In this document: positions 3,463 to 53,077 of the stretch, one piece after another
How the letters are laid out: each line of letters opens with the position of its first letter
How positions within the stretch are numbered: position 1 is the first letter of the stretch
Origin: Dictyostelium discoideum
Taxonomy: Eukaryota
NCBI GenBank assembly: GCA_000004695.1
Contig: CM000150.2
Location: 3,968,001 to 4,032,000 of the forward strand
Reading direction: 5' to 3'
Length of the DNA stretch: 64,000 nt
Program-made: the position numbers and the translations under genes
The notes under the pieces: generated by a model
Told to the model about the DNA's origin: nothing
Seen by the model: the letters and a program-made list of their open reading frames with translations, nothing else
Database searches by the model: none

Positions 3463-4087
3463 CAAAAATTAAACTTGTACCACCAACAATTGACATTTTA
3501 GAGTTTCCTTCAATGATAGATTTACAACCTAAAACCACAGCATTTGATGATGACGAACAAGCTGTATCTATTGTTATTGATGGACCATGAAAATCAAAAA
3601 TGTTTGAGACACGATTTGATGATGAATGTGATGATGATGAAAATATGTTGGTTTGAATTGAATCGATAGTTCTATTTAAATCTCTATATTCGTGAGTTGT
3701 ATTCCCAATGAAAACAGAGGTATTTGAACCGCGTAAATTAATTGGATCAATCATTGCATCTTCAATGGCTTCCCATGTACATTTTAAAAGTAAACGTTGT
3801 TGTGGATCTATTGCAGTTGCCTCTGGTGGACTTATACCAAAGAATAAAGGATCGAATGATTTAACTTCATCCATTGGTAATAAACCACCATATCTATTAT
3901 TAATCTCGCCCAATTTGTTGAAATTATCACTCCATCTTTCATTAGTTTCAATAATACCATCATAACCATTAACTAATTCTTTCCAAAGTTCACTTGGATT
4001 ACCTAAACTCTTGCCACTACCACCACCTGGTAATCTAAACCCAATTCCAATAATCCCAATACCATTATTTTCTTCTTTTAAAATCAT
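3463..4087 (-). CDS. Type I polyketide synthase, exon 1 (N-terminus, start of ketosynthase domain).
   Basis: ORF-track minus [25 protein letters not shown]... with the DTACSSS KS active-site Cys. Ends at a GTAAGT donor (phase 1). Intron 3370-3462 is a poly-A/T tract. Confidence 0.85.
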
Positions 4088-41497: not shown

Positions 41498-41789
41498 ATG
41501 ATGAAAATAAAATTATTTTTACCAATTAAGGTTCGTTTTTTTTTCAATTTTTATTAAAATTGTCAGAGAATACCCTTAAACTGGCACCAAATAACTCAAT
41601 GTCGGTATCTACAGCAAATTCACCTAGATATCCATATGATTTTATGGAGCTGTATATTTAATAGGAATTGGATGATTGTTGATAAAAGAATAAAATTAAA
41701 TAAAAATACTTTTTTTTTTTTTGATGTAAATCAAAAACGAGTTTTTTAAATAGAAATAATTTATTGTTATAATTTAGAAAAAAAAAATT

Positions 41790-42233
41790 TTAAACTTTAC
41801 TTAAAGTAAGTTTATATTGGTAATTGTATGTACTACCCATGATAGCAAAACCACCACTATAAGATTTTACAATTTTGGAACTAGTTGGAATTTGATCTTT
41901 ACTGGTGCAATCTTCGCTATAGAAAACACCACTATAACCTTTAGTTATTTTATATTCAACATGGAGATTTTCACCAGAATTGTAAACACTAACTTTATTT
42001 GGATCACTGAAAAATGTTGATCCAATACCCTTTGAAAATGTATGATTATATGAACTAAAAACAATATTATTTTGTAATAATTGAGCCAACAAGAATATAC
42101 TTTGTGAACCATTATCCAAAGTTTGAGGAATTTCTGGTAATTTACATTTACTACCAAACATTTGAGCATTTGATACTAAACATAATGAAACTAAGAATAA
42201 TAAAAAAAAGGTAAAACTATTAGAAATTTTCAT
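41790..42233 (-). CDS. Small secreted protein, tandem-family copy 1 (147 aa). Signal peptide plus a ~125-aa domain with two conserved Cys.
   Basis: MKISNSFTFFLLFLVSLCLVSNAQ|MFGSKCKLPEIPQTLDNGSQS...EDCTSKDQIPTSS...; 70-80% identical to copy 2. Confidence 0.7.
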   Translation of the reverse strand: MKISNSFTFFLLFLVSLCLVSNAQMFGSKCKLPEIPQTLDNGSQSIFLLAQLLQNNIVFSSYNHTFSKGIGSTFFSDPNKVSVYNSGENLHVEYKITKGYSGVFYSEDCTSKDQIPTSSKIVKSYSGGFAIMGSTYNYQYKLTLSKV

Positions 42234-43449
42234 ATTTTTATTTTTATTTATTTAAAGAATTAAAGTTTAATATATAGAAAACAAATTAAAAAAAAAAAGG
42301 GTATAAATAGATTTTTTTTATCCTTTTTTTTTTTTAATTTTTAAAAATTAAATATTTCAATTTCAAAAACAACCCCAGAAAATTTAAGATAACTTAAATT
42401 TTTAAAAACTATTTCTAATTTAAAAAAATATTAAACAATTTTTTTAACTTAAAATTAAAAATTACCATCTTTGCAAATAAAAATAATTAAAGATATATTT
42501 ATAGTTATTTTTATTTTAAAAAATATTAAAGAAGTACGATTTTTATTGGATATTATTAAATTTAAAAACAGTTAAAATTTTAAATTTGAAAAATCATACT
42601 AAAAATTTTTTGAATTTTTCTTTTAATAGGAAAATGAAAAGGTTTTGGGGAATGTTTAAAAAATAAATTTTTATTTTTTTTATTTTTAAATTTTAACTTC
42701 TAAAAAAAAAAAACAAAAAAAAGAAATGAATAATAGAAATCTGATTAATGATAATCCTACATAATCAAATTATTCAAAACTGACCAACATAAACACCAAC
42801 GCCATCGAAAACATTAACAGATCCAATGAGAGTTTTAACCAATCAAAATGATGTAACTTTAGAATGTTTCGATCAAGAACATCAATCATAAATTTCGATA
42901 ATTGTATTAAATTTACCGCTCATTAAAACAAATTGGAGATAAGGTAATACTTCTTTAAAATCCAAATTGATGATCATTCGAACTATGGTGGATTCATTAA
43001 TGAGCAATCATCAATTCAAAAGCATCATCAACTGAAAACCACAATTCAAATATTATCAATATCACTATCATTAATTTGTATTTCAATACCAAATTATAAA
43101 CAATCAATAATCCTGATCCTTCAGTACTAATATATACTTATCTATCATTGGTTTCCATTTCTTTTGCTGCTAAATTTATTGCCAGACAGTTATTTTGGTG
43201 TCCCTCCAAATTACATAAACAGTTTTTAGGATAATATTTAACTCATTATTCTCTTTGACAATTCTATTAGCATCTTCAAATGATGAACTTTCTATTTCAT
43301 TTTATAATAAGACATTTAAAAATTATAATTCCATTTTGGGAAAAGGAGCCATTTTGTAAAACTTTAATAAAAATACATTTTTTTTATGTAAATCATAAAC
43401 AAGTTTTCTAAACAGAAATAATTTATTTTTTTTTTTATAAAAAATAGTT

Positions 43450-43893
43450 TTAAACTTTAGTTAAGATAAATTTATATTGGTAATAATATGTACTACCCAT
43501 GGTAACAGAGCCACCACTATAAATTACTACACTATAGGAATCAGATGGAATTTGACCTTTACTTGTGCAATCTTCGTTATAATAAACTCCACTATAACCG
43601 CTAACTATTTTATATTCAATATGGAAATTTTCACCAGAATTGTAAACACTAACTTTATTTGAATCACTGAAAAATGTTGATCCAGTACCTTTTGGAAATG
43701 TATGATTATATGAACTAATAACAACATTATTTTGCATTAATTGAGCCAACATGAATACACTGTGTGAACCATTATCCAAAGTTTGAGGGATTTCTGGTAA
43801 ATTACATTTTTTACCAGACATTTGAGCATTTGATACTGCACATAACGAAACAAAGAATAGTAAAAAAAAGGTAAAACTATTAGGAATTTTCAT
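43450..43893 (-). CDS. Small secreted protein, tandem-family copy 2 (147 aa).
   Basis: MKIPNSFTFFLLFFVSLCAVSNAQ|MSGKKCNLPEIPQTLDNGSHS...; intact ORF. Confidence 0.7.
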   Translation of the reverse strand: MKIPNSFTFFLLFFVSLCAVSNAQMSGKKCNLPEIPQTLDNGSHSVFMLAQLMQNNVVISSYNHTFPKGTGSTFFSDSNKVSVYNSGENFHIEYKIVSGYSGVYYNEDCTSKGQIPSDSYSVVIYSGGSVTMGSTYYYQYKFILTKV

Positions 43894-45336
43894 GTTTTTA
43901 TTTTTATTTATTTTAAAGAATTAAAGTTTATATAGAAAATAAATGAAAAATAAAAATGAGAAAAAATAAATGTTTAAAATAGATTTTTATTTTTCTTATC
44001 CCTTTTTTTTTTTTTTTTTATTTTTAATTTTTAAAAATTAAATATTTCAATTTCAAAACCTACCTCAGAAAATATTAAATTTCAGATAACTTTAATTTTT
44101 GAAAAACTAACTCAATTAAAAAAATAAGTTTAATGAAAAAAATAAAAACAATTCTATTTGACCCTAAAAATAAAAATTCCCATCTTAAGCAATATTGTTT
44201 TTTTTTTTATTTTTTTTTTATTTTTTTAAAATAAAAGAAGTATGATTTTTAATTGAATATTTATAAAACCGGATACAATTTTCAATTTGAAGTATTATTC
44301 TGAATACTTTTTTTTCTTTTAATACATTTTAAAATAATTATTTTAATTAAAAAAAAAATTAAAAAATAATAATAAAATAATAACAATTTTTTAATTTGTT
44401 AATTAATAAAATTATTGGTTGAAAATTAAAAAGTTTTGGGGGGTGTGAAAAATAAATTTTTTTTTTTTATTTTTTAAACCCCAAAACTTCTGGAAAAAAA
44501 AAAAAAAAAACAAAAAAGAATTGAATAATCCTATGGAATCAAATTATTCAAAACGGACATTAACACTAACACCACCAAATCAGATTAATGGTTATCCTAT
44601 GGAATCAAATTTTTCAAAAACATAAACAGACCAAATGACAGGTTTAACCAATCAAAATGATATTAATAATAGATATTAAATTTACAAACTGAAATGTAAA
44701 TATATATAAATTAATTGTTACATACATATACATACATACATACACACACATATATATTATATACTATCGCAATAATTAAATTAAAAAAGTTTGTTCTTTA
44801 CAAGTACACATTCAAAGTGATCCAAACTCAGCAAATACATCAACAACCAATAATATTATTATAAAATTAGAATGGTTCAATCAAGCAACCATTCAATTTG
44901 CTAATAGCTAGTATTAAATACTTCTCATTAAAACAATTTGGAGATAAATAGCAATAATCGATTCAAAACCATCATCAATTGAAAATCAATAATTAGATTC
45001 AAAAATGAACTCAATTCAAACATTATCAATATTGCAATGATTCATTGGTAATGTAATACCCAATAATAGATAGCTATCTATTAATACTATAAACAATCAA
45101 TAATCATGACTTTACAGTATTAATAGATAGCTATCTATTATTGGGTTCCATTTCCTTTGCTGCTGTTGGTGTCCCTCAAGTTTACATTCAAAAAGTTTTA
45201 AGGATATTATTTAACTCATTATTCTCTCTGACAATCTTCTAATGATGAACTTTCTTTTTCAATTTAAAATAAAGTATTAAATAATTATAAGGCCATTTTG
45301 GTAAAAGGAGAATAAAACATTGTAAAACTCTTATAT

Positions 45337-45373
<37 letters not shown>

Positions 45374-45406
45374 ATGATATACAGAAATAATTTATTGTTT
45401 TATAAT

Positions 45407-45838
45407 TTAAACTTTACTTAAATTAAGTTTATATTTGTATGAGTGTGTACTACCCATGATAACAAAACCACCATCATAATATCTTAGAATATCGGAACTA
45501 GTTGGAATTTGATCTTTACTTGTGCAATCTTCGTTATAAAAAACACCACTATAACCCTTAACTTTTTTATATTCAACATGGAAATTTTCACCAGAATTGT
45601 AAACACTAACTTTATTTGAATCACTGAAAAATGATGATCCAGTACCTTTTGGAAATGTATGATTATATGAACTAATAACAACATTATTTTGCATTAATTG
45701 AGCTAACAAGAATACACTTTGTGAACCATTATCCAAAGTTTGAGGAATTAATGGTAAATTACATTTTTTACCAGACTTTTGAGCATTTGATACTACACAT
45801 AATGAAACAAAGAATATTAAAAAAAAAGGTAAAACTTA
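45407..45838 (-). pseudogene. Small secreted protein, tandem-family copy 3. The N-terminal (signal peptide) region is frameshifted relative to the ATG at 45836-45838.
   Basis: The downstream frame encodes ...SNAQKSGKKCNLPLIPQTLDNGSQSVF... colinear with copies 1-2. Compared with copy 2 there is a 2-bp loss (cctaaTAgtttt to tctaagtttt) and a T9 run where copy 2 has T8. This puts ATGAAAATTTCTAAG out of frame, with a stop after 11 codons. It could instead be a homopolymer sequencing error. Confidence 0.5.
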
Positions 45839-46518
45839 GAAATTTTCATATTTTTATTTTTATTAATATAAAGAATTAAAGTTTAATATATATAGAAAAT
45901 AAATGAAAAATAATTATTAAAAAAAAGTGTTTAAATAGATTTGTTTTTTTAATCCTTTTTTTTTTTTTGTTATTTAAATTTTTAAAAAAATTAAATATTT
46001 CCATTTCAAAACTAACCCCATCGAAATTTAAAATTTCAGACATATTATCTAAAAAAAAACTAATGCTAATAAAAAAAAAAAATAAGTTTTATAAAAGAAA
46101 AAAAATTCTATTTGACTAAAAATAATTCTATTTGACTAAAAATAAAATTACCATCTTGACCAATAAAAATAATTAAATATTTATTAATAGTTATTTTTTT
46201 TTTTTTTTTTAATTCAAAAATAAAAAATGGATGATTACTATTGGAAATTATTAAATTTAAAACCGTTGCAATTTTAAAATTTGTAATATCTTTATAACTT
46301 TTTTTGTTTTTTTTCTTTTTTATTAGAAAGATTAATAATAATAATAATAATAATAATAAATTAACAATAATTAAAAATAATTGGTTTATTTGTACCGAAT
46401 TTTTGGTGGAAAATGAAAAAGTTTTGGAGGGGGATATTTATAAAATAAATTTTTTTTTTTTATTTTTTTAATTTTTCTTGAAAAAAAAAAAAAAAAAAAA
46501 AAAACAAAACAAAAAAAG

Positions 46519-49699: not shown

Positions 49700-49716
49700 A
49701 ATTATTATTTTTTGTT

Positions 49717-49768
<52 letters not shown>

Positions 49769-50085
49769 TAAAAATAAAAATAAAATATATATATATAAAA
49801 AATATTTTATTTTATTTTGTTCAAAAAGAAGAAAAAAAAAATCTTAAAATAAAAAAAATTTTTTCATTTTTTTTTTTTTTTTTTTTTAAAAATGTATGAT
49901 ATAATTTCAATTATTTCACAACAACTTTTTTTTTTTTTTCTTTTTGATCAAATTAAATTAAAAAAAAAAAAAGTGAGCAGTATTAATTTTAAAATATGGA
50001 TTAAAGAATATCAAAATTTTATGTTTATCTGTTTTGAAATCATTTAAAATTTTCAAATAGCAATAAATGGTAAGATAACTTTTTA

Positions 50086-50135
<50 letters not shown>

Positions 50136-50523
50136 CAAGAAAACAAAAGAGGCTTTACGACACTTTGGGTTGCAATTGCTCAAAAATTTCCGTCTAATTG
50201 TCCTAGCTATATGCTATTCTCAATAATTGTATTACTTTTATATTAAATAAATAATACTATTTTTGAGAATTGTCATTTTTGCTAAGACAATTAGATGGAA
50301 AATTTTGAAAAATTGTAATTCAAATCATTAGGTACCAACTCAAGATTCACAAGATGACCAAGTAATTGAACCAGGATGTTGATATGCCAGTAGATTGCAA
50401 TGCGATGCAGCAGATTCTGCAAAAATGAATAAAATACAAATAAATAATAAAAACTAATAATTTAATACAAAAAATAAAAAAGGTGTTTATTTTTCTTTTT
50501 ATTTATTTAATTTCTTTTTTATA

Positions 50524-50566
<43 letters not shown>

Positions 50567-50579
50567 TTCTTTATTATTT

Positions 50580-53077
50580 TTATACATCTAAATTCCAAAT
50601 TGAATTTGCTAATTCATCAATTGTTTGATAATTTCTAAGTAATGGATTATGTCTTGCAGCAGTTGTAAAAGCATCACAATGATGAATTAAAGTATATTGC
50701 ATAGCTCTTTTAATGAAATTTTGAGGATTTTCATTATAATAATCTAACCAACTCTTTTCATTTTCTTTGTTTGAATTTGGTAAAAGATATTTTGATAAGA
50801 AAGATTTTAATCTAACTTTATCCAATGCGAAGACCGAGATATAAAGTGAAACCAATTCATACCAACGATCACCAATTTTTGAGTCACCCCAATCAATTAA
50901 ATATTTTGGATCCCAAATTTTAATAGTTTTCTTTACTTCAACAAGTTTACAATCTTGATCGTCATTGTTTTTGCCTTTTTGATTTAACTGTTTTAATCTT
51001 GACGCTAAAGAATTCTTAATACCTTTTTTAGCAGATTTTGAAGTTTTATTTAATTTTTTAATTTTCTCTAATACTATTATTTCAGAGGTTGATTCAATAC
51101 CTAAAACATTTTCATCAGTTAAATCTGCATGAATAAAACATGGATCCATTGAATAATCTATTAATTCAGTTTTATCAATTGGTAAATAACTAGCCAATTG
51201 TGAACGAAGATGTGGAGGTAAACCATTCCAATTCCAATGATTTGAAATATATTTTGAATCAAGTGATAATAATTGATTTTTCCAAGGTAACCATTTATCT
51301 TTCTTATATTCATTTAATAATGATTTAATATTATCATCAATTAAAATTGATTGTTTTTCATTATTTTCAATATTATTATTATTATTATTATTATCATCAA
51401 TTTCAATTGAATGAATTAATGATACTTTTTCAACTAAGAAATCAACTAAATTGTCATCTAATACTTTAATATCTTCTTCTTCATCATCTTCGTCATTCTC
51501 ATCATCATTTTCATCTTCTTCAGGTGGTGATGGATATGGATAAGGTAATGAATCTGGTACAGGTTGAACATCTTGTAAATTTAAAGTATCTTTTAAATAT
51601 TCTGTTACAATGTACGGCCATTTCCATTCACATTGTAATTTATCACCTAATAAATCTTTAATATTACCATATGATAATAACTTTGGAAATGTTGAATTTA
51701 ATTTTGAATTCTCTTTAATCTTTGAATATAAGAATAACTCTGTTGACCATGACTTTTCACCACCCAATTCTGAACAATATAATTTAATAACATATTTTTC
51801 ATCAACAATGAAAACTGGACTTTGACCTGAATTTGGCATTTCTAAATATAATGTTGATTCTTTTGGTGGTAATTTAATTTGTTTTGATTTTACTTTTAAA
51901 TCTGAATCATCATCCTCATCCTCATCATATTTTTTACGATTTTCTTCTTTTTTTTTTAATTCTTCTTCTTCCTTTTCTTCATTTTTATTAATATTTGTTG
52001 TATTTATAAGTTCATCATTATCATTATTATTATTATTATTAATTATAATTGGTTTTTCATTAAATTTTAAATTTGAATTATTTAAAATTGATTTAATAAT
52101 TAAATCCCAATAATCTGTATCATCAAATGAATGAGTGAATTGATCATTTTTAAATTCAAATTGATTGAATTTATTTTGAAAATCAGGACGTGAAGTTAAG
52201 AGATGTTTTTTAAAATCATCATAATCTTTTTTTTGATCATTTGCTAAATCGGAACAAACTTCATCGAAATTTTGAGAATTACAAAAGTTTTGAGTTACTG
52301 CAATCGATTGTTCCATATTTAAAACCATATGCCACCAACCACCTGGTACGAATATAGTTTCACCAGGTTCTTGAATACATTCAATTGGACGATAGTCTGG
52401 TGGTAGGTAAGGGTAAACCTCTAATAGCCAAAGTAGGGATGGAGGTGAACCGTAGATTTTATCAACTACTTCGTCCGACTCTACTGTGTATGGTGTGAAA
52501 TTGGGTGGATACATTAACCAACGCTTTCTGCCAGATATTAGCGAATTCCAGGCACTCGTGCCGGCAGGGTCGATGTGCCACGAAGCACCGCTTCTCTCTG
52601 GACCGATTACAATCCATCGGAAATGGGGTCTGTGCTCTTCGCCATTATATTTAAATAAATCTTCAGGAAAGAATTTAGGTATATTATAATCGTCCAATAG
52701 TGATGGCACTTTCTCGCCAAATGCCTGATCGAATACATACAATGGCTCCTCATCAGTCTGAGTCTTCATATATTGACAATAGTCCCTAAACGTCATTTGA
52801 ATACGCTTATTATCCTGATGTGATATCTTGAATACAACATCACCACATCTCTCTATCAATCTCTCCTCTGACCATTCATTCTTCTCCATCATTGGTGTAC
52901 CTCTCTGTGCATTCTTAAATATAACCGGTATCGATGGTATCTCATACTCCCTTTGGAACTCCTCAACTGTCAACTCATCACTCTCAATATGTTTAACATG
53001 TCCGAAATCAACACCATAGTCTTTAACCTTCATATGTCTTCTTAACCATCTCGTATAAACTTCATGTGAATAGAAAT
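50580..53077 (-). CDS. F-box / JmjC (cupin, 2OG-Fe oxygenase-like) / aminoglycoside-phosphotransferase-like (APH kinase fold) tri-domain protein, exon 2.
   Basis: JmjC core ...WIVIGPERSGASWHIDPAGTSAWNSLISGRKRWLMYPP...GWWHMVLN. C-terminal APH-like block ...DPCFIHADLTDENVL...IDWGDSKIGDRWYELVSLYISVF. Same architecture as Arabidopsis At1g78280. Confidence 0.8.

Follow-up and report, generated by a model that had tools for sequence, protein, structure and literature searches.

A conserved, lineage-restricted long hairpin in an intergenic spacer of Dictyostelium discoideum, possibly a young hairpin-RNA gene

The microRNA (miRNA) genes of Dictyostelium discoideum are mostly intergenic and single-copy and are less AT-rich than their surroundings, with precursors usually 75–125 nt in length, and it has been suggested that exceptionally long miRNA hairpins in dictyostelids are newly evolved. 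About 30 miRNAs are known in this species, turnover between close species is very fast, and whole miRNA modules have been gained or lost between D. discoideum and D. firmibasis, with spacers that are correspondingly shorter (PMC11014262). Primary transcripts (pri-miRNAs) start at a G after a T-rich stretch, 116 nt upstream of the 5p arm in mir-1177 and 281 nt upstream in mir-1176 (PMC6161686). For a high-confidence miRNA, the Kozomara & Griffiths-Jones rules used on D. discoideum ask for a precursor folding energy below −0.2 kcal/mol/nt, 10 or more reads from each arm, arms that form a duplex with a 2-nt 3′ overhang, a common 5′ end in no fewer than 50% of the reads, and small RNAs that are dependent on DrnB/RbdB (PMC6161686). 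The pri-mir-1177 transcript runs into the downstream gene. A different kind of hairpin locus is represented by the hairpin-RNA (hpRNA) or inverted-repeat proto-miRNA loci of plants, flies, and fungi, which are long, nearly perfect, young stem-loops of narrow distribution. Their stems are expected to yield heterogeneous siRNA-like products, not one precise duplex; the loci are recognized by the small RNAs that map to them, and their arms are often homologous to a target gene.

The hairpin described here resembles ddi-mir-1177 (a 151-nt hairpin) and ddi-mir-1176 in being single-copy, intergenic, and less AT-rich than its surroundings (PMC6161686, PMC11014262), in having T-rich motifs ending in G at 100–300 nt upstream, and in a normalized folding energy past −0.2 kcal/mol/nt, at about −0.38 to −0.40 kcal/mol/nt over 161–169 nt. 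It lies just upstream of a protein gene, as ddi-mir-1177 does, and like other D. discoideum pri-miRNA genes it belongs to a module that is either wholly present or wholly absent when close species are compared. It differs from listed D. discoideum precursors in its weaker energy (about −0.40, compared with −0.43 to −0.70 kcal/mol/nt), in its length (161 nt rather than the usual 75–125 nt), in being much more AT-rich (24% GC), and in that its sequence is absent from the published miRNA lists that were searched. With hpRNA and proto-miRNA loci it has in common a long, nearly perfect, young stem-loop of narrow phylogenetic distribution; unlike them, it has no similarity to other sequence in the window (the whole stretch of DNA analyzed, 64 kb in length). 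Our preferred reading, held tentatively and as plausible rather than probable, is that the locus is a young, single-copy, structured hairpin-RNA gene restricted to D. discoideum and its closest sister species, probably read from the + strand and likely a low-output substrate of Dicer.

The window has a GC content of 21.9% and is matched at 99.6% identity over 13.9 kb by a contig of assembly GCA_054883475.1. Within it, the intergenic spacer that contains the hairpin is 880 nt long, and both flanking genes lie on the − strand (Table 1). The ends of these genes agree with the first-pass annotation, which had placed a GC-enriched island between the promoter of a MEK gene and the 3′ end of a JmjC gene. 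The JmjC gene is spliced, with one exon encoding 817 aa. Reading along the − strand, the hairpin falls 256–416 nt past the JmjC stop and directly ahead of a T-run preceding the kinase gene, and AATAAA sites occur approximately 80–100 nt past the same stop. The island itself (50150–50425) has 31% GC against 6–10% in its flanks, which are 90–94% AT and not about 85% as originally described. The island consists of two parts, and the value of about 40% GC once given for all of it applies only to the segment of about 100 nt at 50325–50425, the long hairpin at 50164–50324 having 24%. The adjoining A-run, first put at 60 nt, was counted at 46 nt; this poly(dA:dT) tract may function as a promoter or nucleosome-free element. 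AATAAA is found at the matching place in D. cf. discoideum as well as to the right of the island in the window, but these hexamers are only possible poly(A) signals because the hexamer is common by chance in AT-rich DNA.

Table 1. Positions of the hairpin, its parts, and neighboring features in the window.
Feature	Position	Strand	Basis or remark
Protein-kinase gene (MAP-kinase-kinase-like; called MEK in the first-pass annotation)	ATG 49699	−	ORF list and Pfam
T14CT5 run ending in G, after CACAACAAC	49926–49946	+	218 nt upstream of hairpin; candidate + strand start motif
Poly(dA:dT) tract	50087–50132	A46 on +, T46 on −	Borders island on kinase-gene side
Long imperfect hairpin, 161 nt, about 57–61 base pairs	50164–50324	+ favored, tentatively	Inverted repeat, folds, conservation
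Apical part (inner stem and terminal loop)	50215–50277	+	Near-invariant between D. discoideum and D. cf. discoideum
GC-richer (40%) non-coding flank	50325–50425	None; 3′ of hairpin on +, 5′ on −	Part of same lineage-specific module
Two AATAAA hexamers	50428–50444	+	Directly right of island; candidate poly(A) signals
T-rich motif ending in G (CCTTTTTTATTTTTTG)	50468–50483	−	144 nt upstream of hairpin base; resembles pri-miRNA start-site motif
JmjC/Cupin_8 gene	Stop 50580–50582	−	ORF list and Pfam domain match

The hairpin is built from outer arms at 50164–50207 and 50281–50324 (44 nt, 82% complementary, spacer of 73 nt) and nested inner arms at 50216–50242 and 50244–50270 (27 nt, 81% complementary), with a lower stem of 35 bp. 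The imperfect inverted repeat with a nested pair inside it had been recognized correctly at first pass, with arms given as 35 bp and a spacer of about 85 nt in place of the 44 and 73 nt measured here; a downstream segment that had been called palindromic amounts to a 5-bp stem. Compared with dinucleotide shuffles, the whole 276-nt block 50150–50425 is exceptionally stable on both strands, as had been anticipated, folding at −83.6 kcal/mol (z −7.7) on the + strand and −78.8 kcal/mol (z −7.0) on the − strand. The hairpin alone (50160–50328, + strand) folds at −64.6 kcal/mol with a z of −13.3, none of 200 dinucleotide shuffles being as stable, and of the 2554 sliding 170-nt folds computed across the entire 64-kb window, that of its + strand ranked first in stability. 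The − strand hairpin folds at −55.8 kcal/mol, and the + strand fold is better than that of the − strand by 9–12 kcal/mol in both D. discoideum and D. cf. discoideum. The hairpin is real and goes beyond what chance would produce.

Orthologous loci totaling about 77 kb were collected by way of the JmjC protein from D. cf. discoideum (L001), D. citrinum (L002), D. firmibasis (L003), D. purpureum (L004), and a second strain of D. discoideum (L005). The JmjC gene followed by the next gene on the same strand is an order common to D. cf. discoideum, D. citrinum, and D. firmibasis, and the downstream gene in D. purpureum looks different. Identity between D. cf. discoideum and the window is about 81% over 13.4 kb, reaching about 95% in coding parts and merely 42–59% in the spacer toward the kinase gene (49700–50100). 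The island is nevertheless kept in D. cf. discoideum at the orthologous position (L001:9190–9505), where its hairpin (L001:9341–9500) folds at −65.8 kcal/mol with a z of −10.4. In the second D. discoideum strain, the module of about 330 nt that comprises the hairpin and the GC-richer flank is identical to that of the window. The spacer is 994 nt long in D. cf. discoideum, 587 nt in D. citrinum, and 380 nt in D. firmibasis, and the multiple alignment contains one large gap of about 330 nt in the latter two species, covering the T-rich motif, the GC-rich flank, and the hairpin. A profile built from both hairpins found no match in the D. citrinum or D. firmibasis loci. The simplest history to fit these alignments would be that the module was gained once the D. 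citrinum lineage had split off. A weak BLAST match in D. purpureum (L004:9214–9309) was taken as chance, lying as it does in an AT-rich intron of the next gene.

Several further differences among these spacers were observed. The poly(dA:dT) tract that adjoins the module is 46 nt in one D. discoideum strain and 32 nt (T32) in the other (L005:~3800–3835), and its counterpart is T27 in D. cf. discoideum but only T17 in the D. citrinum spacer. In D. cf. discoideum there is a 34-nt insertion (TTTGAAGAAGTAGGATCGTCCTTTTCTCTCTCTC, L001:9305–9338) exactly at the hairpin base, starting with TTTGAA as do the hairpin's first bases, which suggests a hotspot of slippage or duplication at the base of the stem. 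The D. citrinum spacer, without the module, has a 73-nt hairpin of its own (L002:9252–9325; −18.6 kcal/mol, z −4.4) directly before the kinase-side T-run, i.e. in the same relative place as the D. discoideum hairpin, and no sequence homology was detected between the two.

Analysis of covariation was based on two diverged sequences, those of D. discoideum and D. cf. discoideum. Their consensus structure, on the + strand of the window, has 57 pairs and not one is broken in either species. Seven of the 57 were changed on one side only, always between G·U and either A·U or G·C, and in two both bases were replaced (U-A became A-U, and A-U became G-C). If a random change is assumed to preserve a pair with a chance of one-third, at least 7 pair-preserving single changes among 11 would be expected with p ~0.04. 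This pattern is modest evidence that base pairs have been kept through compensatory and wobble changes, as expected for a structured RNA. When four 1×1 positions that pair in one species only are added to the consensus pairs, there are 61 pair sites, 59 of which are canonical in each species on the + strand, compared with 54 and 56 on the − strand. G·U pairs number 5 and 4 in the two species if the + strand is read and 0 and 1 if the − strand is read; when distinct sites are counted, the + strand has G·U at 8 and A·C at 1 (p = 0.02), and on the − strand there would be a C·A mismatch in one species at 7 of the 13 variable pair sites. A process acting symmetrically on DNA strands would give equal numbers of G·T and A·C; the imbalance seen here therefore speaks for selection on an RNA of the + strand, and we regard it as modest evidence for that strand (p ~0.02–0.04). 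Divergence is also distributed unevenly along the hairpin, the apex differing at 2 of its 63 columns and the lower stem at 29 of its 98 (Fisher p = 1.1e-5). Although the lower stem has diverged by about 22–30%, its consensus pairs are all intact; constraint therefore falls on sequence in the apex and on pairing alone in the lower stem. Such a pattern would be expected if a defined product or binding site were located at the apex, with the lower stem as a platform for processing.

As to whether the hairpin is an already described miRNA, 12–18-mers from all of its parts, in both DNA and RNA alphabets, were absent from the supplements of PMC6161686 (Liao 2018), PMC11014262 (Edelbroek 2024), and PMC4894637 (Meier 2016), in a search of read alignments, precursors, and mature tables that covered mir-7089 to mir-7105 (Avesson 2012) in part and that found mir-1177 as its positive control. 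A full-text search of the literature with hairpin 16–18-mers gave no match, none of 13 published mature miRNA sequences occurs in the 64-kb window, and none of the miRNAs passing in Edelbroek 2024 (PMC11014262) is on chromosome 1 (NC_007087). Absence from published sets and from the passing miRNAs of NC_007087 argues against an abundant, precisely processed miRNA. We take NC_007087 to be the chromosome of mekA. Of the three candidates in the first-pass annotation, namely a miRNA-like or other structured ncRNA precursor, a MITE-like remnant, and a cis-regulatory hairpin, the stable fold and conserved pairing support a structured RNA, for which a miRNA is no more than a putative identity.

Each strand of the locus has a T-rich motif that ends in G and whose distance from the hairpin is typical of pri-miRNA starts, and in this respect the locus fits a pri-miRNA-like gene. 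The − strand motif is conserved as T15-G in D. cf. discoideum, lies within the block that D. citrinum and D. firmibasis lack, and by its resemblance to known start sites is a candidate − strand start. The + strand motif has a counterpart, CACAACAAC-T13-G, on the corresponding strand of D. cf. discoideum near L001:9845–9870, but it is weak as a start because T-runs are ubiquitous in the D. discoideum genome. A T-run-GATCAAATTAAATT motif occupies 49926–49960 on the + strand, some 250 nt upstream of the kinase ATG, and is oriented opposite to the kinase gene. In each of D. cf. discoideum (L001:9960–9990), D. citrinum, and D. firmibasis, the strand of the kinase gene itself carries a very similar T-run-GATCAAATTTAATTT just upstream of the ATG; the two may be related by local inversion or may be a chance resemblance of low-complexity sequence.

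Indels of 4, 1, and 34 nt interrupt the alignment of the GC-richer flank with D. cf. discoideum, and the pairings that alifold proposed for this flank were all weak, AT-rich, and invariant on either strand, giving no convincing conserved structure. The island is non-coding. The longest open reading frame had initially been put at less than 15 codons, and a TTG-initiated frame of 43 codons is in fact present on the − strand at 50291–50422, but this was rejected as coding because indels disrupt it in D. cf. discoideum and its 43-aa product has no Pfam match. In the GC-richer flank, the window has an in-frame TGA at a place where the D. cf. discoideum frame stays open, and all codon positions, first and second included, show substitutions. 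A small + strand exon was also considered (intron ATG/GTAAGA...TTAG/GTACC, peptide of 17 aa) and was rejected; its frame relative to the splice site is not kept in D. cf. discoideum, where the upstream ATG-GTAAG is missing too, substitutions show no synonymous bias, and the peptide has no Pfam match. Known RNA classes did not account for the island either. The best match in an Rfam scan of 49700–50700 at a permissive E-value was MIR4245, which scored 23.2 bits where the gathering score is 74 (E = 0.21), and all remaining matches had E > 1. Inspection by eye revealed no snoRNA boxes (C/D or H/ACA), DUSE (CCCAYAA), or tRNA-like B box (GGTTCAATTAC) present or conserved in both D. discoideum and D. 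cf. discoideum.

A second long hairpin occurs in the window at 45058–45146 (context 45040–45165), with 36-nt arms that are 97% complementary, a 17-nt spacer, and a sequence unrelated to the first. Its folding energies are −52.8 kcal/mol (+ strand) and −58.7 kcal/mol (− strand), with z between about −11 and −12; among 170-nt folds of the 64-kb window it ranks second in stability, and it was absent from the miRNA supplements searched. It is situated between tandem paralogues of a protein of about 147 aa with an N-terminal hydrophobic segment (ORF 43450–43893, − strand), encoded in three diverged units at 41691–42430, 43357–44173, and 45406–46125 that are 82–87% identical; D. cf. discoideum apparently has a single such unit (L001:13063–14323). 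Part of one arm of this second hairpin has a diverged copy at 43095–43171. In the second D. discoideum strain, a gene for a reverse transcriptase (RVT_1) of 1182 aa lies just past the tandem paralogues (L005:11661–15897), placing a retroelement near the region of the second hairpin.

An alternative explanation for the conserved hairpin could be a neutral DNA quasi-palindrome with no RNA function, formed by inverted duplication or template switching in the ancestor of D. discoideum and D. cf. discoideum, persisting because little time has elapsed, and held complementary by arm-to-arm templated repair. Template-switch mutation explains how a perfect inverted repeat may originate suddenly and can give coupled changes in both arms, and template-switch repair in a quasi-palindrome can likewise yield seemingly compensatory pairs. 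The lineage restriction and AT-richness of the element and the failure to find it in searched miRNA sets are consistent with this, covariation statistics from only two diverged copies are weak, and palindromes seem to arise readily in these spacers, given the unrelated near-perfect hairpin 5 kb away and the small one in the D. citrinum spacer. However, a neutral palindrome predicts as many A·C as G·T, not the 8:1 excess of G·U that was found, and would hardly leave every consensus pair unbroken in a lower stem as diverged as this one. Nor would it predict a near-invariant apex; homogenization of the arms leaves the loop unexplained, and the apical 63 nt, loop included, by far exceed the remainder of the spacer in conservation. 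Template switching may explain how the element arose, not how it has been maintained, and a purely neutral palindrome, though a serious candidate, is in our view unlikely. The inverted-repeat layout, compact size, and sharp bounds of the module, its presence in two species and absence from the next two, and the existence of Thug-S transposon-derived miRNAs in D. discoideum would also suit the remnant of a MITE or of a DNA transposon of the foldback type, the stem being made by its terminal inverted repeats, as the first-pass annotation had suggested. This is highly improbable, since BLASTN and nhmmer searches of the 64-kb window and the five related loci (~77 kb) recovered self and orthologue matches only, exact-pattern scans of JGI metagenome contigs with two core 22–25-mers gave 0 matches, and the arms have no flanking target-site duplication or direct repeat (CGACAC/TTTGGG...TTCAAA/TCATTA in the window and ATGAG/TTTGGA...TTCAAA/GAGAG in D. 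cf. discoideum). A transposon remnant would also not be expected at the orthologous position in two species with substitutions that keep its pairing.

It is also conceivable, although quite improbable, that the element acts from the − strand, the strand of both neighboring genes. It could then be a pri-miRNA-like transcript running from the T-rich motif at 50468 toward the kinase gene, as pri-mir-1177 runs into its neighbor, or an RNase III-cleavable hairpin in read-through RNA from the JmjC gene that ends transcription ahead of the kinase promoter. The promoter-like motif inside the module favors the − strand, being conserved and at a distance from the hairpin within the reported range of 116–281 nt; the place of the hairpin between the JmjC stop and the T-run ahead of the kinase gene is suitable, and the − strand also folds well, as noted. 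Against this are the C·A mismatches at more than half of the variable pair sites and the weaker − strand fold in both species, and the gene pair does not need the module, because D. citrinum and D. firmibasis share the gene order without it. The retention of the kinase gene in these two species without the module similarly counts against a DNA-level cis-regulatory module, in which the invariant apical 63 bp would be a palindromic cluster of transcription-factor sites approximately 500 bp upstream of the kinase ATG. The extension of apical conservation into the loop and the position of the element upstream of the kinase gene are what such a module would predict, but it leaves unexplained both the pair-preserving evolution of the 35-bp lower stem and the G·U asymmetry, and we consider it very unlikely.

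The locus fits a young hairpin-RNA gene because it combines an exceptional fold, orthologous conservation, pair-preserving changes, strand asymmetry, and gain or loss as a module in the manner of known miRNAs. In the mechanism that we infer, which extends to transcription, its strand, processing, and any target, RNA polymerase II would make an RNA of approximately 300–500 nt, more likely from the + strand and antisense to both neighbors, starting at or beyond the poly(dA:dT) tract and ending near the AATAAA hexamers. This RNA would fold into an imperfect stem-loop of about 60 bp that could be a natural substrate of the nuclear Dicer-like DrnB/RbdB machinery, which processes D. discoideum pri-miRNAs. 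RNAs of about 21 nt would be released, most plausibly from the near-invariant apical 63 nt, and would probably be too rare or too imprecisely cut to enter curated miRNA lists, so that the locus might best be described as a proto-miRNA or hpRNA locus. A more specific version, in which a hairpin-RNA gene is seen soon after its birth as a module of about 330 nt, with purifying selection on + strand pairing and on apex sequence and with DrnB-dependent small RNAs that stringent pipelines discard, is rather unlikely to hold in full.

How new hairpin genes arise in D. discoideum is an open question (PMC11014262). At this locus three states can be compared, i.e. presence of the module in two D. discoideum strains, a diverged orthologue in which structure is preserved, and empty sites in two further species. 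If the hairpin is not expressed it would be a well-preserved palindrome of little wider interest. If it is expressed, it would be convenient for studying how a Dicer substrate is born, and, should the reading as a young hairpin-RNA gene prove true, it would represent a dated de novo origin of a miRNA or hpRNA in Amoebozoa, with the state before that origin still to be seen in D. citrinum and D. firmibasis.
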